From IMG/VR virus record IMGVR_UViG_2687453454_000002: 51,775 nucleotides of DNA; one strand, written 5' to 3'. The notes below the pieces were generated by a model. It made no database searches and was not told where the DNA came from. It worked only from the letters and a program-made list of their open reading frames with translations. Numbering within the stretch: the first letter of the stretch is position 1; each line of letters starts with the position of its first letter. Positions 1,659 through 46,924 of the stretch are shown here, in pieces. The DNA comes from a virus (Duplodnaviria > Heunggongvirae > Uroviricota > Caudoviricetes). The translations under genes and the position numbers were made by a program.

Positions 1659-2738
1659 TTAAGAATCAGCCTGACTCGGGATCAGTTTTTGCCAGATAAC
1701 TGAAACGTATTTTGCCTGGTAACGGGCGTCATCAAGTGCATTATGGCGCTCACCTTCGAATGGAATAGCCGTTCTGGCATCGAAGTCTATGGCTTTCCCC
1801 AGCTCAACGATTGTGCGTACATCGCGATCGTTGTAGTAACGCCACGGGCAGGGGATCCCCTGCCGTTCGTATGAACGGCGCAAAATCGTGTTGTCGAAGT
1901 TGGCTCCATTTCCCCAAACCTGAACAAAAAATTCACCGGAGTTTTCGTCGATAAATTCTCGCAATTGTAACAGTGCATCATCTAACGGGATTTCATCGGT
2001 CATAATGGCAGATTGCGCTTCGCGTGATTGCTTAAGCCACCATTTAATGGTGTCCCGATCAATGACTCCGCCAGCAGTTTCCAGATCGATAGTCTTACTA
2101 AATTCCGGTCCCATATCTCCGGTTTGCGGATCGAAAAATATTGCACCTATTGAGATGATCGGGGCATCAGGATTTTTTCCCATGGTTTCAAGGTCGATCA
2201 TTAGATGGTCACACGTCCTGCTGGTGGATGTGATTTCGTGATGACCGTTCACCTTAATTGGGTGATCTGCCGTCTCGCCAGTTTCATTATCGCTATTGTG
2301 ATGCTGATTGCCGCCAGTGTTCTCCTTGTGTGGATGTTCAGCGCCTTCCATTTCCTCCGGATCATCTTCCTGAACTTCAACCTGATACTCTTCATCGAAT
2401 GTTTCTTGGTATGTTGCGTCGCCCATCACCGCGCCACAATCAGGGCAGTTGCCGCCGCCGGTCTGACCGCAGGCGGTGCAGACTTTTTCCACTTCCTGTT
2501 GCGCTACTGGTTCAGGCTGTTTCGTTTCTGGCTCGTTTTGTAACGCATTTGGACTGTTTTGTTCCGCTTTTTGGTAGTTCCGTTCCGATTCATGCTGGTT
2601 CTGGTTCACAGAATCGCGGGTCTGGAGCCCCTTAACCCATTTCGGATCATTCGGGTCACTAATCCCTTCAACAAATTCACCACGTGATGCAGCAAGCAAC
2701 TTATCGGCGTCAGGCTGGCTGATATTGGCTGCCTGCAT
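1659..2738 (-). CDS. DnaQ-like (DEDDh) 3'-5' exonuclease with N-terminal Zn-ribbon and acidic linker
   Basis: C-terminal half carries Exo I (LMIDLETMG), Exo II ([11 protein letters not shown]) and Exo III (HNALDDARY) motifs; N-terminal CTACG..CPDCG ribbon followed by an acidic low-complexity stretch. Confidence 0.7.
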
Positions 2739-2987
2739 AATTTTGTTTACTTCGTCAGCGGTAACTTTTATCGGCTCTGGTTGTTCTGAATCTTCAGCGG
2801 TATCTACATTTTGCGGTAAGCCCGTGTATGTGCCATTTTTTCGGGCAAAATATTCTTCTTTTGTGATTTCAGTGGCGCCAGCAGCCAGTGCCTTATCCAG
2901 ACCAGAGAGTTTGTTTGCGCGACCGTATTTTTCTCCGTCCTTATCTGCGAAGAGGAAATAGAACGGCCCCTCACGCTCTACAGATGG

Positions 2988-4130
2988 TTAAGCTTCCGGC
3001 GCGGTTTCATTTTTTGGGATATCAGATACCTCAGTTTCCACTGCATCAGTTTGTGTTTCTGATGACTGGAGAACATCAACAGTGCCCAGGTCTGTTTCTT
3101 CATTCTCAAACACGCCCTTTGTCGTCAGGTATTCGCAGATATATTTGTTCAGTGCTACGGGATCTTTGTGAATGTCGATCGGACGCTCACGGACAAGGCC
3201 AAAAATAGTTTGGCGGTCGTAGCGAAGGGCATCAGGCTGTTTGCGCATTGATGCCGAGATACGCTTCCAGTCTTCGCGGTCGTTGTCGATAACTTCTTTT
3301 TTTGCCCAGCGATGGATGCTGCCGTCAATGTTTCCGGCATCCACATCACTAGGCCAGAGAGCGTAGGCCAGTTCGTCATCCAGTGTTTTCCATGTCTGCT
3401 TGTATTCGCGATGAATGGCAGCAATGACCGGGCTGATTTTTCCTGTTGAATTTTCAGTGTACTGTTGATTGGCTCTGGCGCGGGCGAGATCAACAACAGA
3501 CGTGTATTTTCCGGTTTCCTTGCGTTCACCTTCGCGACGTTTTTTCCAGATGCGCATCTCTGCCTGAATTTCGGGCCATTTAGCACCAGGAATACATTTA
3601 TGCTTAACCCACCCAATGGCGTGCAACTTAAGCTCCGGATACATGGCGTTAACTTCTGGCATTTTCATCAACGCTTCAACGATATGTCCGTCGAATGTTG
3701 CCATGTCTTCCTGCAACAATTCCTGTGCGCTAATAACCATATCAACGGTGATGTTTTCACATGTGTCGAACTTAACCATGACAGCGTTCTGTACTTCAGG
3801 GGCCAGCTTGTCAAAAGTGACGTTCATCGGATCGGATTCAGTCTCAACCGGGACAAAAGAAGCAGACTCCTCATCCCAGCGGTTTTCCTGCATATATTCA
3901 GCATCCCATGAATCGAGGGCAGGGCGGGGTATGCCAGGTTTATCCTCGCAGACAATAAATTTATAAGCGCAGTCCTGAGCAGCCGGATAATGTTCCAGGA
4001 ATTGCCAGTGAAATTTTGCTCGAGCACGGCGTTCGTCGCCAGCTTCAATGGCTGTGGCTACAGCCACAGCGCCTTCTTCCCTTGTTGCCAGTTCGTCAGG
4101 AATAGCGGCGCAAATAAAGACTTTACTCAT
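2988..4130 (-). CDS. ydfE: YdfE-like early-region protein of unknown function (full length)
   Basis: ORF-track entry 2988..4166 begins with TTG; the ATG at 4130 has a GAGG Shine-Dalgarno about 10 nt upstream. Position matches ydfE downstream of ydfD in Qin (recalled gene order). Confidence 0.6.
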   Translation of the reverse strand: MSKVFICAAIPDELATREEGAVAVATAIEAGDERRARAKFHWQFLEHYPAAQDCAYKFIVCEDKPGIPRPALDSWDAEYMQENRWDEESASFVPVETESDPMNVTFDKLAPEVQNAVMVKFDTCENITVDMVISAQELLQEDMATFDGHIVEALMKMPEVNAMYPELKLHAIGWVKHKCIPGAKWPEIQAEMRIWKKRREGERKETGKYTSVVDLARARANQQYTENSTGKISPVIAAIHREYKQTWKTLDDELAYALWPSDVDAGNIDGSIHRWAKKEVIDNDREDWKRISASMRKQPDALRYDRQTIFGLVRERPIDIHKDPVALNKYICEYLTTKGVFENEETDLGTVDVLQSSETQTDAVETEVSDIPKNETAPEA

Positions 4131-4222
4131 TTGTTTTAACCTCATGACAGATTTAAGGATGAACAAATCCCTGCCATTGCTGGCATATAAGAATGAAACC
4201 GGATATTTATTACGGAACTGTT

Positions 4223-4414
4223 TTAAAGACCTGCCGGGATTTCGATATTATCCTGGTGAATAACTTTATCGACCGGGTAACAGTTACCGGGAATTTTCTG
4301 TTCGGTTGCTGCAGTCATACACTCCTGCATTGTCCTGTGAACACTGACTGCAATATCAACTGGCTCTCCGGAAACAAGAAAAACTGTCAGAACAAGCACA
4401 AATGCTGAATTCAT
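4223..4414 (-). CDS. ydfD: YdfD (63 aa), small membrane/lysis-associated protein
   Basis: Internal Met of ORF 4223..4468 gives MNSAFVLVLTVFLVSGEP..., matching K-12 YdfD from memory; ATGA overlap with the dicB stop. Confidence 0.8.
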   Translation of the reverse strand: MNSAFVLVLTVFLVSGEPVDIAVSVHRTMQECMTAATEQKIPGNCYPVDKVIHQDNIEIPAGL

Positions 4415-4599
4415 TGTGCACATCCTTTTGGCATCAGACGTAAACGAGCCAGCATTGAAACAATGCATATTTTATTTAATAGCTCCCGTTCTTGTTTTCT
4501 CTTGTTAATGGCATCTTCAGTAAATACTGGGTTACTGATAGTGACACCAATTTCAAAACAACCTTCAGACGTATTAACGTTTGGTAATAACGTTTTCAT
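4411..4599 (-). CDS. dicB: DicB cell-division inhibitor (62 aa)
   Basis: 62-aa ORF MKTLLPNVNTSEGCFEIGVTISNPVF... matches K-12 DicB as recalled. Confidence 0.9.
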   Translation of the reverse strand: MKTLLPNVNTSEGCFEIGVTISNPVFTEDAINKRKQERELLNKICIVSMLARLRLMPKGCAQ

Positions 4600-4768
4600 T
4601 ATCGCGTCCTCAACAATGAATTTTGTGATGCAGTGCCTGGTGCCTCCAGGTGACGTTAACTAGTTAACAATTAACGCCGGATACAGAGAATCCACCCATA
4701 ACACTGTTTTTGGTTTTAACTGTTCCGCGTGCGCTCAGCCGCATTCACCACATCACAAAATTCACTTT

Positions 4769-7093: not shown

Positions 7094-8039
7094 ACGTCCA
7101 CTGGTTATAAACACGCAGCTGGCAATGAAAATTGGCTTAAACGAAGCCATTGTTTTGCAACAACTGCACTACTGGTTGAGAGATACCAACTCCGGCATGG
7201 AATGTGATGGTGTTCGCTGGATTTATAACACAACGGAACAATGGCTGGAACAGTTCCCATTCTGGTCAGAGTCAACGTTAAAGCGCGCGTTTGCAAGTCT
7301 GAAAACGCTGGGGCTTTTGCGTTGTGAAAAGCTCAATAAATCAAAGCGCGATATGACCAATTTCTACACGATCAACTATGGGAGCGAGCTTTTAGATGGT
7401 GGCAAATTGAGCGAATCCATCGGTTCAAAATGCGCCGCTCCATCAGGTCAAAATGACACGATGGAAGAGGTCAAAATGAAACGCTCCATTGGTTCAAAAC
7501 GACCCAATGTCATCGGGTCAAAATGGCCTGATGATCTTACAGAGAATACAACAGAGATTACTACAGAGAATAAAAACACTTTTCGTCCGGAAGCTTCGCA
7601 ACCGGACCCGCAGACGACTGAACAGGATTTTTTAACCCGGAACTCCGACGCGGTTGTGTTTAGTGCGAAAAAACGCCAGTGGGGTAGCAGGGAGGATTTG
7701 GCGTGTGCGCAGTGGATCTGGGGGCGGATCGTGGGTCTCTACGAACAGGCAGCCAGTGATGATGGCGAGATCATGCGACCAAAAGAGCCTAACTGGACTG
7801 CCTGGGCCAATGACGTGCGCACAATGCGGATGCTGGATGGCAGAAGCCACAGACAAATTTGCGAAATGTTTGGTCGGGTTCAGCGAGATCCATTCTGGGT
7901 AAAAAACATCATGAGCCCGTCAAAGCTCCGCGAAAAATGGGACGAACTGGTCATCCGCCTGGGACGTTCACCTGTACAGCGTTGTGTTAATCATATTTCT
8001 GAACCGGATACAGAAATTCCGCCTGGTTTCAGAGGATAA
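7074..8039 (+). CDS. Putative phage replication-initiation / replisome-organiser protein (HTH N-terminal domain)
   Basis: N-terminus LVINTQLAMKIGLNEAIVLQQLHYWL... resembles phage replication-initiator HTH domains; an iteron array lies inside the gene as in lambda O. The ATG at 7074 is chosen over the overlapping ORF-track start at 7020. Confidence 0.5.
   Translation: MSLLFAERPLVINTQLAMKIGLNEAIVLQQLHYWLRDTNSGMECDGVRWIYNTTEQWLEQFPFWSESTLKRAFASLKTLGLLRCEKLNKSKRDMTNFYTINYGSELLDGGKLSESIGSKCAAPSGQNDTMEEVKMKRSIGSKRPNVIGSKWPDDLTENTTEITTENKNTFRPEASQPDPQTTEQDFLTRNSDAVVFSAKKRQWGSREDLACAQWIWGRIVGLYEQAASDDGEIMRPKEPNWTAWANDVRTMRMLDGRSHRQICEMFGRVQRDPFWVKNIMSPSKLREKWDELVIRLGRSPVQRCVNHISEPDTEIPPGFRG
7416..7525. 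repeat. Iteron array (candidate phage replication origin) inside the initiator-like gene
   Basis: Five copies of CATCGGTTCAAAATG-like 15-18-bp repeats at exact 23-bp spacing (7416, 7439, 7462 degenerate, 7485, 7508), followed by an A/T-rich ACAGAGA(A/T)TA-repeat stretch at 7540..7590. Confidence 0.65.
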
Positions 8040-8079
8040 GTGTTGATTTCAGGTCATGAGGTAATTTTAAGGGGGACTT

Positions 8080-8502
8080 GTGGCAAAAGTTTTTACACAA
8101 GAAGAGCGGGAAAAAATTAAATGGCAGGTGGTGGAACTCGTGCGCCAGAGCGGCCGTGAGACGTTACGGCAACTGGAAGCTAAAACAGGTGCGACTAGAT
8201 ATCTGATGAGCGTTCTTGCCAGAGAGCTGGTAGCCAGTGGCGATGTATACAACTCCGGCTACGGGTTATTCCCCTCTGAACAGGCGCGTAAGGACTGGCA
8301 AAACGCCCGCAAAAAACTCTCGAGGGCAAAGGTGAAGAAACCTGCTGTGGTTGATCCGGACCTTATCTGGTCATCACCTGACGGAGAAATACGTCGCTAC
8401 GACAGTCGCCTAAACATAATCTGTCGCGAGTGCCGGAAGAGCGAAGTTATGCAGCGCATACTGGCTTTCTATCAGGGTAATTTTCAGGACGTGGCGCAGT
8501 GA
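8080..8502 (+). CDS. Hypothetical protein (140 aa) with C-terminal CxxC pair
   Basis: ORF with start overlap to the following methyltransferase-like ORF; function unknown. Confidence 0.5.
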   Translation: MAKVFTQEEREKIKWQVVELVRQSGRETLRQLEAKTGATRYLMSVLARELVASGDVYNSGYGLFPSEQARKDWQNARKKLSRAKVKKPAVVDPDLIWSSPDGEIRRYDSRLNIICRECRKSEVMQRILAFYQGNFQDVAQ

Positions 8503-8855
8503 GTGCACCGGCAACCATTCTTGATATGTGCTGTGGCAGCCGCATGTTCTGGTTCGATAAGTCTGACGAACGGGCGATATTCAGCGATATCAGAAAAGAA
8601 GGATACACATTACGCAATGGGAGACGCTTGATTATCAGCCCTGACATTATCGCAGATTTTCGTGCATTATCATTTGCAGACGCATCTTTTTCGATGGTTG
8701 TATTAGACCCTCCGCATCTTGAGAGTGTTGGTGATAACGCCTGGATGGGAAAGAAATATGGACGGCTGAATAAAGATGCCTGGCGTGATGATTCGCGACA
8801 GAGATTTAAAGAAGCCTTTCGGGTGTTGAGGCCGCACGGCGTTCTGATTTTTTAA
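8499..8855 (+). pseudogene. DNA methyltransferase catalytic-domain fragment (motif I and DPPH motif IV), probably truncated
   Basis: GTG-start 118-aa ORF with LDMCCGS (SAM-binding motif I), VVLDPPH (motif IV) and RVLRPHGVLIF, but it ends with no target-recognition domain and no in-frame continuation downstream. Confidence 0.5.
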
Positions 8856-9374
8856 TGGAATGAAACGCAAATACCGGTAAGCCAGATTCTGGCACTGACA
8901 GACAGAAAACCTGTTATCTGTCAACGAACAGGGAAAAAACGATAAAACCCACTGGATTATTTTTATGAAAGAGGCATCCAGTGAGTAGATTCGTAAGGCT
9001 ACAGATACGTATATCTGAATAATTAAATTCAGTTCTGTAAATAAAATTTAATCCTTAACCGGATGGATTTCTGCACCCTCAGAACATCAGGAGGCCGCCC
9101 GAAAGGGCGGTAGTGAAATGCGAAAGTTCAAAATTATTATTGAAACGGGAATAGCTGGTGGAGATTTTGAGGATGTATTCGAAGTGGACGATGACGCAAC
9201 ACCTGAGGAAATTCATGACGGAGCATAAGAAATTTTCTTTAACTACTGCAATTACTCATACCACGAAATAAAAGACGATGAGGAAGAACAAAGTGGCTGA
9301 TTTTTGTTCAGCTAAATATAACATCAGTTTTGAGTAAGCGTGCAGCAAGAACCGTATTGACGGGGATGTGTTAT

Positions 9375-10910
9375 TCAGTCGGCAGTGCTACGCGCCAGGG
9401 GGAGCAGTTCGCCGACCCGGTTTATCGGCCAGTCGGCTATGACGTCAAGGACATAGCGGAGGTAGCTTTCTGGCTCCACTCCGTTCAGTTTGCACGTCCC
9501 GATCAGGCTGTACAGCAGCGCTCCCCGCTCTCCTCCATGATCCGAACCGAAGAACAGGTAGTTTTTGCGGCCCAGACTGACCATCCGCAACGCATTTTCA
9601 GCGATGTTATTGTCCGCCTCAGCCCAGCCATCATCTGCATAGTACGTCAGCGCCGGCCACTGGTTCAGGGCGTATGCGAACGCTTTCGCCAGTTCTGAGT
9701 GTCGCGACAGGGTTTTCATCTTTTCACGCAGCCAGCTTTCCAGGGATTTCAGCAGCGGTTTCGTTTTCAACTGACGTTCGGCAAGGCGCTGCTCCGCCGT
9801 CATTCCCCTTATCTCTGCCTCGATGGCGTACAGTTCGCCGATCCGTTTCAGCGCTTCCTCCGTCAGGGCTGACGGGGTGCGAACGTGCACATCGTGGATT
9901 TTACGGCGGGCGTGAGCCCAACAGGCGGCTTCCGTTATCCGGCCATCCCGGTACAGCTCGTTGAACCCGGCGTATGCATCCGCCTGCAGTACACCACTGA
10001 ACCCCGCAAGATGGGTCTGCGGATGGATGCCTTTTCTGTCCGGGCTGTAAGCGAACCACACCGCCGGCGCCAGCGTTGACCCGGCGTTACGGTCGTCACG
10101 AACGTAGGTCCATAACCGCCCGGTCTTCGTTTTCTTATTGCCTGGCAACAGCACCGGGACAGGCGTGTCATCAGCATGGAGCTTACCGTCAGTCAGCACA
10201 TAGTCCTGAAGCGCTTCTTCCAGCGGTGACAGTAGCCGGCAGCATGCATCCACCCAGCCCGACAGCAGTGAACGACTCAGCTCCACGCCCTGGCGGCCGT
10301 ACATTTCAGACTGGCGGTACAGCGGGGTGTGCTCTGCATACTTTGAGATCAGCACGCGGGCCAGCAGCCCCGGTCCTGCGATACCCCGCTCGATGGGCCG
10401 TGAAGGCGCGGGGGCCTGCACGATGGCATCGCACTGAGTACAGGCATGCTTTTCACGTACAGTCCGGATAACCCGGAAGGCGCTGCGCATCAGCTCCAGC
10501 TGTTCGGCGGCATCCTCACCCAGATAGCTCAGCGAGCCTCCACATTCCGGGCAGCATGACGCTGCCGGCAGCAGCCGTTTTTCATCGCGGGGGAGTGATT
10601 CGGGGAACGGTTTGCGGGTGCGGGTTTGACGCAGCGGGCGCTGCACGGCCGGGTCGTCAACCCGACCGGTAAGGGTATCACTTTCTTTCTGAAGTGCCTT
10701 CAGGTCAGCTTCCATCTGTGCGATACGACGGGAGACTTTTTCCGAGCGGCTGCCGAAGTTCATCCGGCGCAGCTTATCCAGCTGTGCCTGCAGATGGTCT
10801 ATTTCGCGTTCACGCTCGTTCAGCTTTTCCTGCAGGGCACGGTTCAGCGCCTCCTGTTCGGCAAGGAGACGTTTCAGTGCATTGATATCGTCAGGAAGTG
10901 AGCTGCTCAT
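9375..10910 (-). CDS. tnpC: IS66-family transposase TnpC (511 aa)
   Basis: 511-aa ORF with the leucine-zipper-like N-terminus and overall architecture typical of IS66 TnpC. Confidence 0.85.
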
Positions 10911-10958
10911 ACCGGGTATATTACCAGGCTCATTCAGCGTCGACCAGGATAAAGAGGC

Positions 10959-11306
10959 TTACAACATAGTCAGGGACGTAAGCAGTCTTTTAGGCTGCCG
11001 CCAGTCGATACCTTCCAGCAGCATCGCCAGCTGTGCCGGTGTGAGGAACACTTTGCCATCCCGGGCTGACGGCCAGGCGAAGCGGCCGCGCTCCAGCCGT
11101 TTGGTCAGCAGACACAGTCCATCGCCGGTAGACCAGAGGAGCTTTACCTGACTGCCATTACGCCCACGGAAGATAAAAACGTGACCTGACATCGGATCGT
11201 CTTTCAGCGTCGTCTGCACCTTTGCCGCCAGGCCGTTGAAGCCGTTTCTCATATCGGTGATGCCAGCGACCAGCCAGATCTTTGTCCCTGATGGTAATGG
11301 GATCAA
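10959..11306 (-). CDS. tnpB: IS66-family TnpB (115 aa)
   Basis: 115-aa ORF directly upstream of tnpC, overlapping tnpA by 4 bp; IS66 Orf2 size. Confidence 0.8.
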   Translation of the reverse strand: MIPLPSGTKIWLVAGITDMRNGFNGLAAKVQTTLKDDPMSGHVFIFRGRNGSQVKLLWSTGDGLCLLTKRLERGRFAWPSARDGKVFLTPAQLAMLLEGIDWRQPKRLLTSLTML

Positions 11307-11707
11307 CGTTTGAGCTCCCGTATCAGCAGGTTCAGGATATTTTCGCTGATGGCACCATTCAGACGGAGTGATCCGTGCCGGAACGTCACTTCACAGCTGA
11401 TATTGAGTGATTCAGGTGTCGCAGCAGCTACAGGTTGTGACCGGGGGGAGGTTGTAGGGACAACATCTTCGGCATCAAGTGTTATCGGGAGCAGCTCAGG
11501 CACGTTGTTTTCTGTTGTTGAAGGAGGACGTAGTTTTCCTTCGCGCCAGTACTGGCGCCACTTGAACAGCAAATTATCGTTGATCCCATGCTCACGAGCG
11601 AGTTGCGCTACGGAGATCTCTGGTCGATGCGAGAGTTCAACCATTTTGATTTTGAACTCAACGGGATAATTAGGGCTTTTTTTACGCACTGCGGTTAATG
11701 ATTTCAT
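11303..11707 (-). CDS. tnpA: IS66-family TnpA (134 aa, HTH)
   Basis: 134-aa ORF with HTH-like VAQLAREHGINDNLLFKWRQ; first gene of the IS66 operon. Confidence 0.8.
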   Translation of the reverse strand: MKSLTAVRKKSPNYPVEFKIKMVELSHRPEISVAQLAREHGINDNLLFKWRQYWREGKLRPPSTTENNVPELLPITLDAEDVVPTTSPRSQPVAAATPESLNISCEVTFRHGSLRLNGAISENILNLLIRELKR

Positions 11708-12984: not shown

Positions 12985-14298
12985 ATGATCAAAGAGACTG
13001 TTACGATGAGTCATAAGGAACTCCACCGACTTCAGATTATTCAGGAACAAGCTGCGGCACGCATTGGCATTTCTATTCGGCAGGTTAAACGTCTGGTGCA
13101 ACGGTATAGAAATGAAGGGCCTTCTGGTCTGGTTTCCCACCGACGTGGAAAGCGTCCTAATAATTCCTTTTCTACTGAATTCAGAGCAACAGTAATTTCA
13201 CTCCTCAAAGGCCGTTACGCTGATTTTGGACCTACGTTTGCGTGCGAAAAATTGCGCGAGATACACGGTTTATCTTTATCCGTTGAAACTCTCAGAAAGT
13301 GGATGATAGAAGAGGGGTTATGGCGTGAACGCCGTCGTAAAATTGCCCGTATATATCAACGCCGCATGCGACGACCATCTTACGGTGAACTGATCCAGAT
13401 TGATGGCTCACCTCATGACTGGTTTGAAAATCGAGGCCCCAGATGTACACTGATCGTTTTCATTGATGATGCCACCAGTGCGTTGATGGCGTTGCGTTTT
13501 GTGCCTGCTGAAACAACCCGGGCTTACATGGAAACCCTCCGGGGTTACCTTAATGATCATGGCGTACCGCTCGCTCTCTACTCTGATAGACACAGTATAT
13601 TCAGGGTAAATAACCCAGAGCGGGAAGGTGAGCTGACCCAGTTCACTCGTGCGATAAAGACACTGGGCATCGAGCCAATCCATGCCAACAGCCCGCAGGC
13701 AAAAGGGCGGGTAGAGCGCGCCAATCAGACACTACAGGACAGGCTGGTCAAAGAAATGCGGCTTCAGAATATCAGTGATATTGAAACAGCAAATGCATGG
13801 TTGCCGACCTTTATTGAAGCCTATAACAACCGGTTCGCTACGTCGCCTCGTACTACTGATAATGCTCATCTTGATGTGCACCATTCTGAAGAGGAACTGG
13901 GTTATATCTTCAGCCTACAGGCGAAGCGCGTTCTGTCTAAAAATCTCACTTTCCAGTACAAAAGCAGTGCGTTTCAGGTACGCAGTGAGGGCCGGGGATA
14001 TCGACTTAGGCATTCGGTTGTTACTGTATGCGAGAACTTTGACGGTGAAATTAACGTTCTGTATGACGGGAAAGCGCTGGGCTGGGAAAAGTATGTTGAT
14101 GGCCCGGAGCCTATACCACTGGATGATGAAAAGAGTGTCCATGAACGAGTGGATAATGCCCGTATTGATTTACGCTCAAAATACTATGTTAAACCTAAAG
14201 CTGACCATCCCTGGCTTACGCGCCGAACGCAAAGTCATCAGCAAGTTAAGCCCCCGAAGTTACCTAAAAAGAAGCCTGATCCCGATAAAAAAGATTGA
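12985..14298 (+). CDS. DDE transposase with rve integrase core (IS481/ISNCY-like), 437 aa
   Basis: N-terminal HTH, then DDE-type core motifs (IQIDGSPHDW, LYSDRHSIF, QAKGRVERANQTLQDRL); no IstB-like partner; terminal inverted repeats not resolved. Confidence 0.75.
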   Translation: MIKETVTMSHKELHRLQIIQEQAAARIGISIRQVKRLVQRYRNEGPSGLVSHRRGKRPNNSFSTEFRATVISLLKGRYADFGPTFACEKLREIHGLSLSVETLRKWMIEEGLWRERRRKIARIYQRRMRRPSYGELIQIDGSPHDWFENRGPRCTLIVFIDDATSALMALRFVPAETTRAYMETLRGYLNDHGVPLALYSDRHSIFRVNNPEREGELTQFTRAIKTLGIEPIHANSPQAKGRVERANQTLQDRLVKEMRLQNISDIETANAWLPTFIEAYNNRFATSPRTTDNAHLDVHHSEEELGYIFSLQAKRVLSKNLTFQYKSSAFQVRSEGRGYRLRHSVVTVCENFDGEINVLYDGKALGWEKYVDGPEPIPLDDEKSVHERVDNARIDLRSKYYVKPKADHPWLTRRTQSHQQVKPPKLPKKKPDPDKKD

Positions 14299-18230: not shown

Positions 18231-18700
18231 ATGAACCTTGAAGCCTTACCAAAATATTACTCCCCAAAATCTCCAAAATTGAGCGATGACGCTCCAGCGA
18301 CAGGCACCGGTTGTTTAACAATTACGGATGTAATGGCAGCGCAGGGGATGGTGCAGTCGAAAGCACCACTTGGGTTGGCCTTATTTCTGGCAAAAGTTGG
18401 TGTTCAGGACCCTCAGTTTGCGATTGAAGGCCTGCTAAATTACGCGATGGCACTGGATAACCCGACATTGAACAAATTGAGTGAAGAAATCCGGTTACAG
18501 ATTATTCCTTACCTCGTGAGTTTTGCCTTTGCTGATTACTCCAGGTCTGCGGCAAGTAAGGCTCGCTGTGAGCATTGTTCAGGTACGGGATTTTATAATG
18601 TATTGCGCGAAGTGGTGAAACACTACAGACGCGGGGAATCTGTAATCAAGGAAGAATGGGTGAAGGAACTATGTCAGCATTGCCATGGTAAGGGCGAAGC
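18231..18700 (+). pseudogene. quuQ: Q-family late antiterminator, 3'-truncated by IS1
   Basis: ATG at 18231 with GGAGA upstream; Zn-finger-like CEHCSGTG...CQHCHGKG. The reading frame runs into IS1 at 18701 (last residues and the stop at 18720..18722 are IS1 sequence); K-12 QuuQ is recalled as about 250 aa. Confidence 0.7.
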
Positions 18701-18755
18701 GGTAATGCTGCCAACTTACTGATTTAGTGTATGATGGTGATTTTAAGGTGCTTGC

Positions 18756-19031
18756 GTGGCTTCCATTTCCATCAGATGTCCTTCCTGCTCCGCTACTGAA
18801 GGCGTGGTGCGTAACGGCAAAAGCACTGCCGGACATCAGCGCTATCTCTGCTCTCATTGCCGTAAAACATGGCAACTACAGTTCACTTACACCGCCTCTC
18901 AGCCCGGTACGCACCAGAAAATCATTGATATGGCTATGAATGGCGTCGGATGTCGCGCCAGTGCACGCATTATGGGCGTTGGCCTCAACACGGTTTTACG
19001 TCACTTAAAAAACTCAGGCCGCAGTTGGTAA
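18756..19031 (+). CDS. insA: IS1 InsA (91 aa)
   Basis: [51 protein letters not shown]... is IS1 InsA. Confidence 0.9.
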
Positions 19032-19453
19032 CCTCGCGCATACAACCGGGCAGTGATGTGATTGTCTGCGCTGAAATGGATGAACAGTGGGGCTACGTCG
19101 GTGCTAAATCACGTCAGCGCTGGCTGTTTTACGCGTATGACAGGATACGGAGGACGGTTGTGGCGCACGTCTTCGGTGAACGCACTCTGGCCACACTGGA
19201 GCGTCTTCTGAGCCTGCTGTCGGCCTTTGAGGTCGTGGTATGGATGACGGATGGCTGGCCGCTGTATGAATCACGCCTGAAGGGAAAGCTGCACGTTATC
19301 AGCAAGCGTTACACTCAGCGCATTGAGCGACATAATCTGAATCTGAGACAACATCTGGCAAGGCTGGGACGGAAGTCACTGTCGTTCTCAAAATCGGTGG
19401 AGCTGCATGACAAGGTCATCGGGCATTATCTGAACATAAAACACTATCAGTAA
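18950..19453 (+). CDS. insB: IS1 InsB' reading frame (expressed as InsAB' by -1 frameshift)
   Basis: 167-aa ORF in the -1 frame overlapping the insA 3' end; typical IS1 layout. Confidence 0.85.
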
Positions 19454-19790
19454 GTTGGAGTCATTACCTTTGTACTCTTGAAAAACTGTGTTCTGACTCT
19501 TGGGTGCAGTTTGGGCAGGAACATTTAACGAGATAATTACGGCGTGATTTTGAGTTTTTACGTTCTGACATAGGCTTTTCCTGTATAAATGGCCGTATAC
19601 AGTACACTAAATATGAAAACATTTCTCGTATTATTATTTTATATATGACTTTCTTTCAAAATAATTACCCACATTTTTAATGTGTATGTTTTTTTAGCGC
19701 CGTTGAGAACAACGTGTGCTGTCAAAACTACCCCGTAGACTCCGATCTTTTCAAACATATTGCACCATCCGTGTACATCGGGGTGAGGAT

Positions 19791-20006
19791 ATGAAATCAA
19801 TGGATAAGTTAACAACAGGTGTTGCCTATGGCACATCGGCGGGTAATGCTGGTTTCTGGGCATTGCAGTTACTCGATAAAGTAACTCCGTCACAGTGGGC
19901 TGCAATCGGTGTGCTGGGTAGCCTGGTTTTTGGCCTGCTGACGTATCTGACAAATCTTTATTTCAAGATTAAAGAAGACAGGCGTAAGGCTGCGAGAGGA
20001 GAGTAA
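19791..20006 (+). CDS. essQ: Holin (71 aa) with dual-start motif
   Basis: [71 protein letters not shown]; GGTGAGG Shine-Dalgarno upstream; first gene of the lysis cassette. Confidence 0.8.
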
Positions 20007-20010
20007 TCCA

Positions 20011-20318
20011 ATGACTCAAGACTATGAACTGGTTGTGAAAGGAGTCCGTAATTTTGAGAATAAAGTTACGGTAACTGTAGCCTTACAGGACAAAGAACGC
20101 TTTGACGGTGAAATTTTTGACCTGGATGTCGCCATGGACCGTGTTGAAGGAGCTGCGCTGGAGTTTTATGAGGCAGCAGCCAGAAGGAGCGTCCGGCAAG
20201 TCTTCCTGGAAGTAGCAGAAAAATTGTCAGAAAAAGTTGAGTCTTATCTGCAGCATCAGTACTCCTTTAAGATTGAAAATCCTGCCAATAAGCACGAGCG
20301 TCCTCATCATAAATATCT

Positions 20319-20322
<4 letters not shown>
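20011..20322 (+). CDS. ydfR: YdfR-like protein (103 aa)
   Basis: 103-aa ORF between holin and lysozyme, the position of ydfR in Qin. Confidence 0.65.
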
Positions 20323-21346
<1,024 letters not shown>

Positions 21347-37249: not shown

Positions 37250-37947
37250 TGCAGGATATCCGGCAGGAAACACTGAATGAATGCACCCGTGCGGAGCAGT
37301 CGGCCAGCGTGGTGCTCTGGGAAATCGACCTGACAGAGGTCGGTGGAGAACGTTATTTTTTCTGTAATGAGCAGAACGAAAAAGGTGAGCCGGTCACCTG
37401 GCAGGGGCGACAGTATCAGCCGTATCCCATTCAGGGGAGCGGTTTTGAACTGAATGGCAAAGGCACCAGTACGCGCCCCACGCTGACGGTTTCTAACCTG
37501 TACGGTATGGTCACCGGGATGGCGGAAGATATGCAGAGTCTGGTCGGCGGAACGGTGGTCCGGCGTAAGGTTTACGCCCGTTTTCTGGATGCGGTGAACT
37601 TCGTCAACGGAAACAGTTACGCCGATCCGGAGCAGGAGGTGATCAGCCGCTGGCGCATTGAGCAGTGCAGCGAACTGAGCGCGGTGAGTGCCTCCTTTGT
37701 ACTGTCCACGCCGACGGAAACGGATGGCGCTGTTTTTCCGGGACGTATCATGCTGGCCAACACCTGCACCTGGACCTATCGCGGCGATGAGTGCGGTTAT
37801 AGCGGTCCGGCGGTCGCGGATGAATATGACCAGCCGACGTCCGATATCACGAAGGATAAATGCAGCAAATGCCTGAGTGGCTGTAAGTTTCGCAATAATG
37901 TCGGCAACTTTGGCAGCTTCCTTTCCATTAACAAACTTTCGCAGTAA
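37249..37947 (+). CDS. L: Tail tip protein L (232 aa)
   Basis: Size and position as lambda L; C-terminal Cys cluster. Confidence 0.9.
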   Translation: MQDIRQETLNECTRAEQSASVVLWEIDLTEVGGERYFFCNEQNEKGEPVTWQGRQYQPYPIQGSGFELNGKGTSTRPTLTVSNLYGMVTGMAEDMQSLVGGTVVRRKVYARFLDAVNFVNGNSYADPEQEVISRWRIEQCSELSAVSASFVLSTPTETDGAVFPGRIMLANTCTWTYRGDECGYSGPAVADEYDQPTSDITKDKCSKCLSGCKFRNNVGNFGSFLSINKLSQ

Positions 37948-45761: not shown

Positions 45762-46628
45762 CTAAGCGAGGTTCTTGTTTTCAAATTGTTCCGGACTGAG
45801 GCCGCCACACCAACTGTGCCGCCGCCACCGATTGTAATCACATTCGATATAATTAAACACCGTTGCCCGCATTATTTCCCGGCTGATAAAGTGTTCTCCA
45901 TGGATACATTCCACTTTCAGCGAATGAAAGAAGCTTTCCACGCAGGCATTATCGTAGCAGCAACCTTTTGCGCTCATACTTCCACGCAGATTATGCCGCT
46001 TCAGTTGCGCCTGATAATCTGCTGAACAGTACTGGCCTCCACGGTCCGTGTGAACGATAACGTTCCGGGGCCTCTTACGCCGCCACAGCGCCATCTGCAG
46101 GGCATCGCAGGCCAGTTGCGCCGTCATGCGTGGCGACATTGACCAGCCAATAACGGCACGTGACCACAGGTCAATGACCACTGCCAGATACAGCCAGCCT
46201 TCATCTGTACGTAAGTACGTGATGTCTCCTGCCCACTTCTGGTTCGGGCCACTGGCGTAAAAATCCTGCTCCAACAGATTTTCTGACACAGGCAGGCCGT
46301 GTGCGCGGTAGCTGACCGGGCTGAACTTCCGGGAGGCCTTTGCCCTCAGTCCCTGACGGCGCAGGCTTGCCGCCACGGTTTTTACGTTAAAGGGGTAACC
46401 CTGAGCACGCAGTTCATCCGTCAGGCGTGGGGCACCGTAACGCTGTTTTGACCGGGTAAAAGCCGCGAGGACAACGCTGTCGCAGTGTTGGCGGAACTGC
46501 TGACGCGTGCTTATCCTTGTCCGCCGCTGACACCACGTATACCAGCCGCTGCGGGCCACCCGGAGCACGCGGCACATTGCTTTGATGCTGAACTCAGCCT
46601 GATGTTTTTCAATAAAGACATACTTCAT
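45762..46628 (-). CDS. insF: IS3 transposase OrfB / InsF (288 aa, DDE)
   Basis: [36 protein letters not shown]... is IS3 InsF. Confidence 0.9.
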
Positions 46629-46924
46629 TTCAGGCGCTTCGCGAAGTATGTCGCGGCCTTTTGGAGGATAGCCAGCTCTTCATCCCGTTCTGCCAGCTGG
46701 CGTTTGAGACGTGCAATCTCGGTAGACATCTCCAGTTCACGTTCAGAAGACGTCTGCTGATTTTGCTGTTTACTGCGCCAGTTGTAGAGTTGTGATTCAT
46801 ACAGGCTGAGTTCACGGGCTGCGGCAGTAACACCGATGCGTTCAGCAAGCTTCAGGGCTTCACTGCGAAATTCAGGCGAATGCTGTTTACGGGGTTTTTT
46901 ACTGGTTGATACTGTTTTTGTCAT
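46625..46924 (-). CDS. insE: IS3 OrfA / InsE (99 aa)
   Basis: [54 protein letters not shown]... is IS3 InsE; overlaps insF in the frameshift arrangement. Confidence 0.9.

Follow-up and report, generated by a model that had tools for sequence, protein, structure and literature searches.

Adjacent deletions generated by IS1 are classically known from the gal region and from Tn9. Such a deletion starts at one end of a resident element, leaves the other flank fixed and the element in place, and gives products of nested lengths in which the target duplication has been lost. A review describes it as typical for IS1/Tn9 that intramolecular target-primed transposition leaves no direct repeat behind (PMC9330008, section 5.2.1), and the succession of insertion, adjacent deletion and extension of the deletion has been watched in real time for IS150 in the E. 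coli long-term evolution experiment (PMC11708052). For the late genes of lambdoid phages, a defined Q cassette consists of the Q gene, the promoter PR', a sigma-dependent pause element, or SDPE, a terminator, as well as the late genes (PMC9388147). In lambda Q, helices H4-H5 (residues 153-207) make up the helix-turn-helix through which the protein binds its Q-binding element (QBE), and L202 and T206 touch the flap-tip helix of RNA polymerase (PMC9388147). Our literature search found no relevant paper on the function of ydfT/quuQ (the Q gene of Qin), on the deletion described below, or on the activity of Qin-type Q/PR', even for intact alleles.

The sequence analysed here (referred to as the window, 51,775 nucleotides, virus record IMGVR_UViG_2687453454_000002) is a Qin-like lambdoid prophage in its entirety; it sits between rspB and ydfJ, which is the Qin site of K-12. 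E. coli EC26 (NZ_CP060880.1) differs from the window by 1 nt in 40,100. The gene order around the IS1 element is relB-relE-hokD-rem-ydfU-Q'-IS1-'ynfU-essD-ydfR-rrrQ-rzpQ-cspI, followed by the terminase, portal, head and tail genes (Table 1). We consider it very probable that this arrangement arose in two steps, an insertion of IS1 in Q and then an IS1-generated adjacent deletion that disabled the late switch.

Table 1. Features of the Q-IS1-essD region (window coordinates, except in the last line)
Feature	Position	Strand	Remarks
Q-family antiterminator gene (ydfT/quuQ allele), 5' fragment	18231..18700	+	codons 1-157 of 250; Pfam PF03589 E=5e-22
Q reading frame as it stands	18231..18722	+	163 aa: 157 native residues plus VMLPTY from the IS1 left end; stop TGA 18720..18722
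IS1 9-bp target GGGCGAAGC, sole remaining copy	18692..18700		second copy kept in EC23, deleted in the window
IS1-family insertion sequence, apparently intact	18701..19468	+	768 bp
IS1 terminal inverted repeat IRL	18701..18723		
IS1 terminal inverted repeat IRR	19446..19468		
insA	18756..19031	+	Pfam InsA domains E=5e-30 and 6e-20
insB frame	18950..19453	+	Pfam DDE_Tnp_IS1 E=1e-74
A6C frameshift motif of IS1	19007		
Deletion junction	19468..19469		1,873 bp absent vs EC23
ynfU 5' fragment (small zinc-binding protein)	19469..19571	-	codons 1-34 of 56; Pfam PF23499 YnfU E=3e-19, profile positions 1-35 of 49
ynfU-essD intergenic DNA, surviving	19572..19790		collinear with K-12 and EC23
Lysis cassette, now severed from its predicted late promoter	19791..21346	+	followed by cspI, others, terminase, head and tail genes
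Holin essD/essQ	19791..20006	+	
ydfR	20011..20322	+	
Lysozyme rrrQ	20319..20852	+	
rzpQ	20849..21346	+	
Intact Q alleles used for comparison	L002 4132..4884 (strain 81); K-12 b1559		250 aa

The Q fragment begins with an ATG at 18231, and its 157 residues are identical to those of K-12 YdfT/QuuQ. An earlier note, made from the window sequence alone, had described a Q-like frame that enters IS1 at 18701 and stops inside it. This is indeed the case (the added residues are VMLPTY, with the stop at 18720..18722), and the intact homologues with which that note proposed to align the fragment are 250 aa long and do not end at the point of entry into IS1. In EC26, PGAP annotates the fragment as an 'antitermination protein, incomplete' pseudogene. 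Intact YdfT is a homologue of lambda Q (PDB 7UBM, E=4.6e-36), its residues 1-120 aligning to lambda Q 1-125 and its residues 160-250 to lambda Q 117-207. What the truncated Q has kept is the N-terminal 'torus', the first half of the body and the first zinc ribbon; the second zinc ribbon is gone, as are the helix-turn-helix and the C-terminus, whose equivalents lie at about YdfT 196-250. As the window Q stops before the helix-turn-helix and the flap-tip contacts, it is a pseudogene rather than a functional member of the Q family and, by analogy with lambda Q, neither binding to DNA nor loading onto RNA polymerase would be expected of it. YdfT/QuuQ carries zinc-ribbon modules in tandem, two where lambda Q has one (the CxxCxGxG motifs are at residues 113, 148 and 161, 187), and the IS1 site falls exactly between them.

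The terminal inverted repeats of the IS1 element pair at 20 of 23 positions (GGTAATGCTGCCAACTTACTGAT vs GGTAATGACTCCAACTTACTGAT). PGAP labels the gene in EC26 an IS1 family transposase with programmed frameshift, and it shares its direction of transcription with Q and the late genes. The 9-bp flanks of the element, GGGCGAAGC on the left and TTTGTACTC on the right (19469..19477), are unrelated, as the earlier note had pointed out. Comparison of these 9-bp flanks reveals no target-site duplication around the window IS1, whereas in strain EC23 the same element is bordered by GGGCGAAGC left and right. The right junction in the window falls within another gene, ynfU, a point overlooked in that note. 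The ynfU fragment lacks the second CxxC pair, its frame ends just inside IS1, and PGAP treats it as a pseudogene.

To place these junctions among other strains, we searched 5,426 complete E. coli genomes. The window configuration occurs in eight of them, a simple insertion in one (EC23) and a larger deletion in one (VE-F5). The eight are EC26, XJW9B263, EM03-18-08, 10R, Ec73552, BN01, 45E and 23CRST028. Both window junctions are 100% identical in the eight independent genomes, which come from different laboratories, hosts and countries, and in each of the eight PGAP marks both flanking genes as partial. IS1 is a multi-copy element, and repeats of this kind do cause short-read misassembly; a false junction produced by collapsing reads over a repeated IS1 is nevertheless barely credible in view of this recurrence.

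In EC23 neither the IS1 nor its left junction differs from the window, and the 9-bp duplication, GGGCGAAGC, is perfect. Beyond the element, the 3' end of Q, ynfS, cspF, cspB, ynfU and essD are all present, and removing IS1 and one repeat in silico yields a Q identical to K-12 YdfT over 250/250 aa. The outcome of the first step is thus preserved in EC23 as a simple IS1 insertion with duplication; the element entered Q at codon 157/158 and generated the repeat GGGCGAAGC. The flanks of the window and EC23 show 0 mismatches over 7,369 bp upstream (IS1 included) and 4,127 bp downstream, which indicates a very recent common ancestry of the two prophages; over comparable spans K-12 has 2 and 11 mismatches to the window. 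The IS1 copies themselves differ at 0/768 positions between the window and both EC23 and VE-F5, and at 70/768 positions from an IS1A copy in strain 81.

Positions 7370..9242 of EC23 are missing from the window, a loss of 1,873 bp made up of the 9 bp of one target copy and 1,864 bp collinear with K-12. The missing DNA comprises the second target copy, Q codons 158-250, the predicted PR'/QBE/pause element/tR', ynfS, cspF, cspB together with the cspB terminator, and codons 35-56 of ynfU. The earlier note had concluded that this was not a simple insertion and that the 3' end of Q and downstream DNA, including a cspB/cspF region, had probably been removed; all of this DNA is found in EC23. The deleted segment itself occurs (at >=80% coverage) in 1,613 of the 5,426 complete genomes. 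It would be very improbable that IS1 inserted and deleted in a single step, or that the csp region was never present and EC23 is unrelated. Deletion simultaneous with IS movement, and without duplication, has been suggested for IS of other families (PMC11708052); in EC23, however, the very same IS1 sits at the very same nucleotide and the flanks, 11.5 kb in all, show 0 mismatches, a coincidence not to be expected of independent insertions, and the truncation of both Q and ynfU implies that the deleted interval once existed.

It therefore seems that the deletion followed the insertion. The deletion event itself is plain from the comparison with EC23, and its mechanism we infer. The resident IS1 would have deleted 1,873 bp from its right end into ynfU, the likeliest route being intramolecular replicative transposition into a nearby target on the same molecule; such a route would spare the element and its left junction while the intervening DNA and one target copy would be discarded. 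The target duplication is missing from the window because the adjacent deletion removed one of its copies. The IS1 and its left junction are identical in the window, EC23 and VE-F5, the element being unchanged; the loss is contiguous and starts exactly at the right end of IS1, the DNA beyond being collinear with EC23; and the deletions have nested extents from one fixed end, 1.87 kb in the window and seven other genomes and 19.7 kb in VE-F5. VE-F5 shares this IS1 and its left junction, but its right junction corresponds to window position 37264, within tail gene L; compared with EC23 it has lost 19.7 kb, and this deletion would be an independent product of the same anchored IS1. A fixed IS end, an unchanged element, a lost repeat and nested deletions together form the pattern classically associated with IS-mediated adjacent deletion. 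In VE-F5, a 'minor tail protein L' CDS that PGAP regards as intact (L004 7364..8053) starts inside the right end of IS1, and the 19.7-kb deletion has therefore made an IS1-L fusion reading frame.

The deletion product taken by itself fits transposase-driven transposition and RecA-dependent recombination with a transient second IS1 alike, and the earlier note, whose interpretation the comparison with EC23 supports, had named both IS1-mediated deletion and inter-IS1 recombination. In the recombinational case a second identical IS1 in direct orientation would have entered ynfU, and RecA-dependent recombination between the copies would have deleted the interval, giving the same product, likewise without target duplication (PMC11708052). 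New insertions are plausible enough, given some 15-20 IS1-matching places per host genome, and IS1 has struck the Qin-like prophage region repeatedly in other lineages. We nonetheless regard this origin as unlikely: each of the nested deletions (window and VE-F5) would require an extra, correctly oriented insertion, the two-copy intermediate occurs in 0/5,426 genomes, every IS1 at the ynfU junction among them has the left flank seen in the window, and nested deletions with one fixed IS end are the classical transposase-mediated pattern. Deletion by transposition of the resident IS1 is thus the reading that we prefer.

Several other IS1 copies in this region were considered and set aside. Hits H12-H30, candidates for a second IS1 beside ynfU, are unrelated insertions, in ydfR (MS 115-1 and others) or in cspF (2018-18.25PC), whose IS1 is 8% divergent from that of the window; with strain 81 included, these independent copies diverge by 8-9%. 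Strain 81 is not the ancestor either, carrying an independent IS1A 3' of an intact Q (70/768 mismatches) with its own duplication, CCCGACGTT. This IS1A (L002 4978..5745) has entered about 27 nt past the predicted start of PR', separating the pause element from the tR' hairpin, and is a second, separate IS1 interruption of the same late switch. In MS 115-1 (L006 5813..6581) and at least 14 other genomes, IS1 sits in ydfR and rrrQ-rzpQ are missing, and in 2018-18.25PC two inverted IS1 copies (L007 2362..3129, 4001..4768) stand in place of the whole stretch from rspB to cspF. Erosion by IS1 is a recurrent event in the Qin-like prophage family.

The DNA lost from the window includes what appears to be the late promoter. 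In EC23 and K-12, a predicted lambda-PR'-like promoter, pause element and terminator lie 31-130 bp past the Q stop, inside the deleted interval. The sequence 3' of Q in both reads TTTGCA-18 nt-TAAAAT-TTTTTC-AACGATGGG, and an 11-nt run within this cassette, TCAACGATGGG, is identical to lambda PR'. The motif AACGAT, known as the sigma-dependent pause element of lambda (reported by Ring, Yarnell and Roberts in 1996), begins 6 nt past the -10 hexamer both in lambda and in the EC23/K-12 cassette. About 40 nt beyond there is a 10-bp GC-rich hairpin with a U-run (73-nt transcript fold, -30.4 kcal/mol, z=-6.1). Judged by sequence, what EC23 and K-12 have 3' of Q is arranged like the defined Q cassette. 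The predicted tR' hairpin (L005 7767..7790), which the window has lost, is a palindrome preceded by an A-run and followed by a T-run; it also scores as a minus-strand terminator, and therefore probably ends the convergent ynfS-cspF transcript too, acting bidirectionally.

The possible loss of a late promoter or qut element, raised in the earlier note, is borne out by the position of this predicted cassette in the deleted DNA. With up to 3 mismatches allowed, no copy of PR' or of the pause element was found anywhere in the window, including the stretch from 19469 to 19790 where that note had suggested looking. In the 322 bp that remain 5' of essD, a promoter scan gave weak promoter-like matches on the + strand (9/12), and the best match (10/12) faces the opposite way, to ynfU. 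The same scan found no hybrid outward promoter at the right junction of IS1. Some expression independent of Q could come from the weak matches 5' of essD or from transcription reading out of IS1.

If the predicted elements act as their lambda counterparts do, the deletion would have destroyed both halves of the late switch, the trans-acting Q and the cis-acting loading site. The losses in cis would be the PR' promoter, the Q-binding element, the sigma-dependent pause element and tR', and those in Q the DNA-binding helix-turn-helix, the second zinc ribbon and the C-terminal contact with RNA polymerase. By analogy with lambda we strongly infer that the lysis and morphogenesis genes would receive no Q-dependent transcription from their native promoter. 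A Q paralogue elsewhere in the genome could not substitute, because the predicted cis-acting loading site is deleted. Being presumably unable to run Q-dependent late transcription, the prophage should therefore not be scored as inducible.

The Q loss is not the sole defect of this prophage. According to the EC26 annotation, further lesions lie at 1659..4130, 9371..11707, 13006..14028 and 45762..46924 of the window: the exo-like gene has an internal stop, ISEc22 (IS66 family) has a frameshifted transposase, an ISNCY transposase survives as a remnant, and IS3 interrupts the tail-fibre gene. The window prophage was probably already defective before it lost Q, and the loss of Q and PR' may change no phenotype because of the other lesions. 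Strains of the window lineage are also left without the cold-shock paralogues cspB and cspF, with ynfS and the end of ynfU gone as well.

The phenomenon as such is already well known, being ordinary prophage decay, and the flanking pseudogenes had already been flagged by PGAP. What is new here is the exact endpoints of the deletion and the recovered ancestor state. The allelic series formed by the insertion, the 1.9-kb deletion and the 19.7-kb deletion, all anchored at one nucleotide, is a stepwise record of an IS eroding a prophage, and it explains an IS copy without target duplication. A more speculative idea, which we hold to be unlikely, casts the IS1 in Q as a 'deletion engine' working to one side, with selection favouring its products, in an adaptive domestication rather than neutral decay. 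If this were true, the lysis cassette would be disarmed by losing Q-PR' and, later, the late region as a whole, while useful genes of the early region such as relBE, hokD and dicB/dicF would be retained; and adaptation would account for the presence of the 1.87-kb deletion in eight isolates, whose sources are humans, cattle, turkey and farm environments on several continents.

As compared with lambda Q/PR' (PDB 7UBM, 7UBN, 4MO1), the Qin-type switch has a homologous Q, the -10 element, the 11-nt TCAACGATGGG at the same spacing and an intrinsic terminator. It differs in that YdfT has a 43-residue insertion in the 'arm', forming the second zinc ribbon, in that the -35/QBE region has diverged, and in that csp 'moron' genes lie between PR' and the holin, unlike in the lambda late operon. 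K-12 Qin occupies the same site (rspB/ydfJ), has the same gene order, with flanks of about 99.8-99.96% DNA identity, and carries the same Q allele across the 157 residues kept in the window. The two prophages have nevertheless decayed at different places: K-12 Qin has an intact Q, PR', cspF, cspB and ynfU and has lost most head and tail genes, whereas the window prophage has kept the integrase, terminase, head and tail genes and has lost everything from the 3' end of Q to the 3' end of ynfU. With the classical IS1 adjacent deletions, finally, the window shares the fixed flank, the deletion from the other IS end, the retained element, the lost duplication and the nested lengths; the difference is that it belongs to a natural allelic series of isolates rather than to a selected laboratory set, and mechanistically nothing different is visible.
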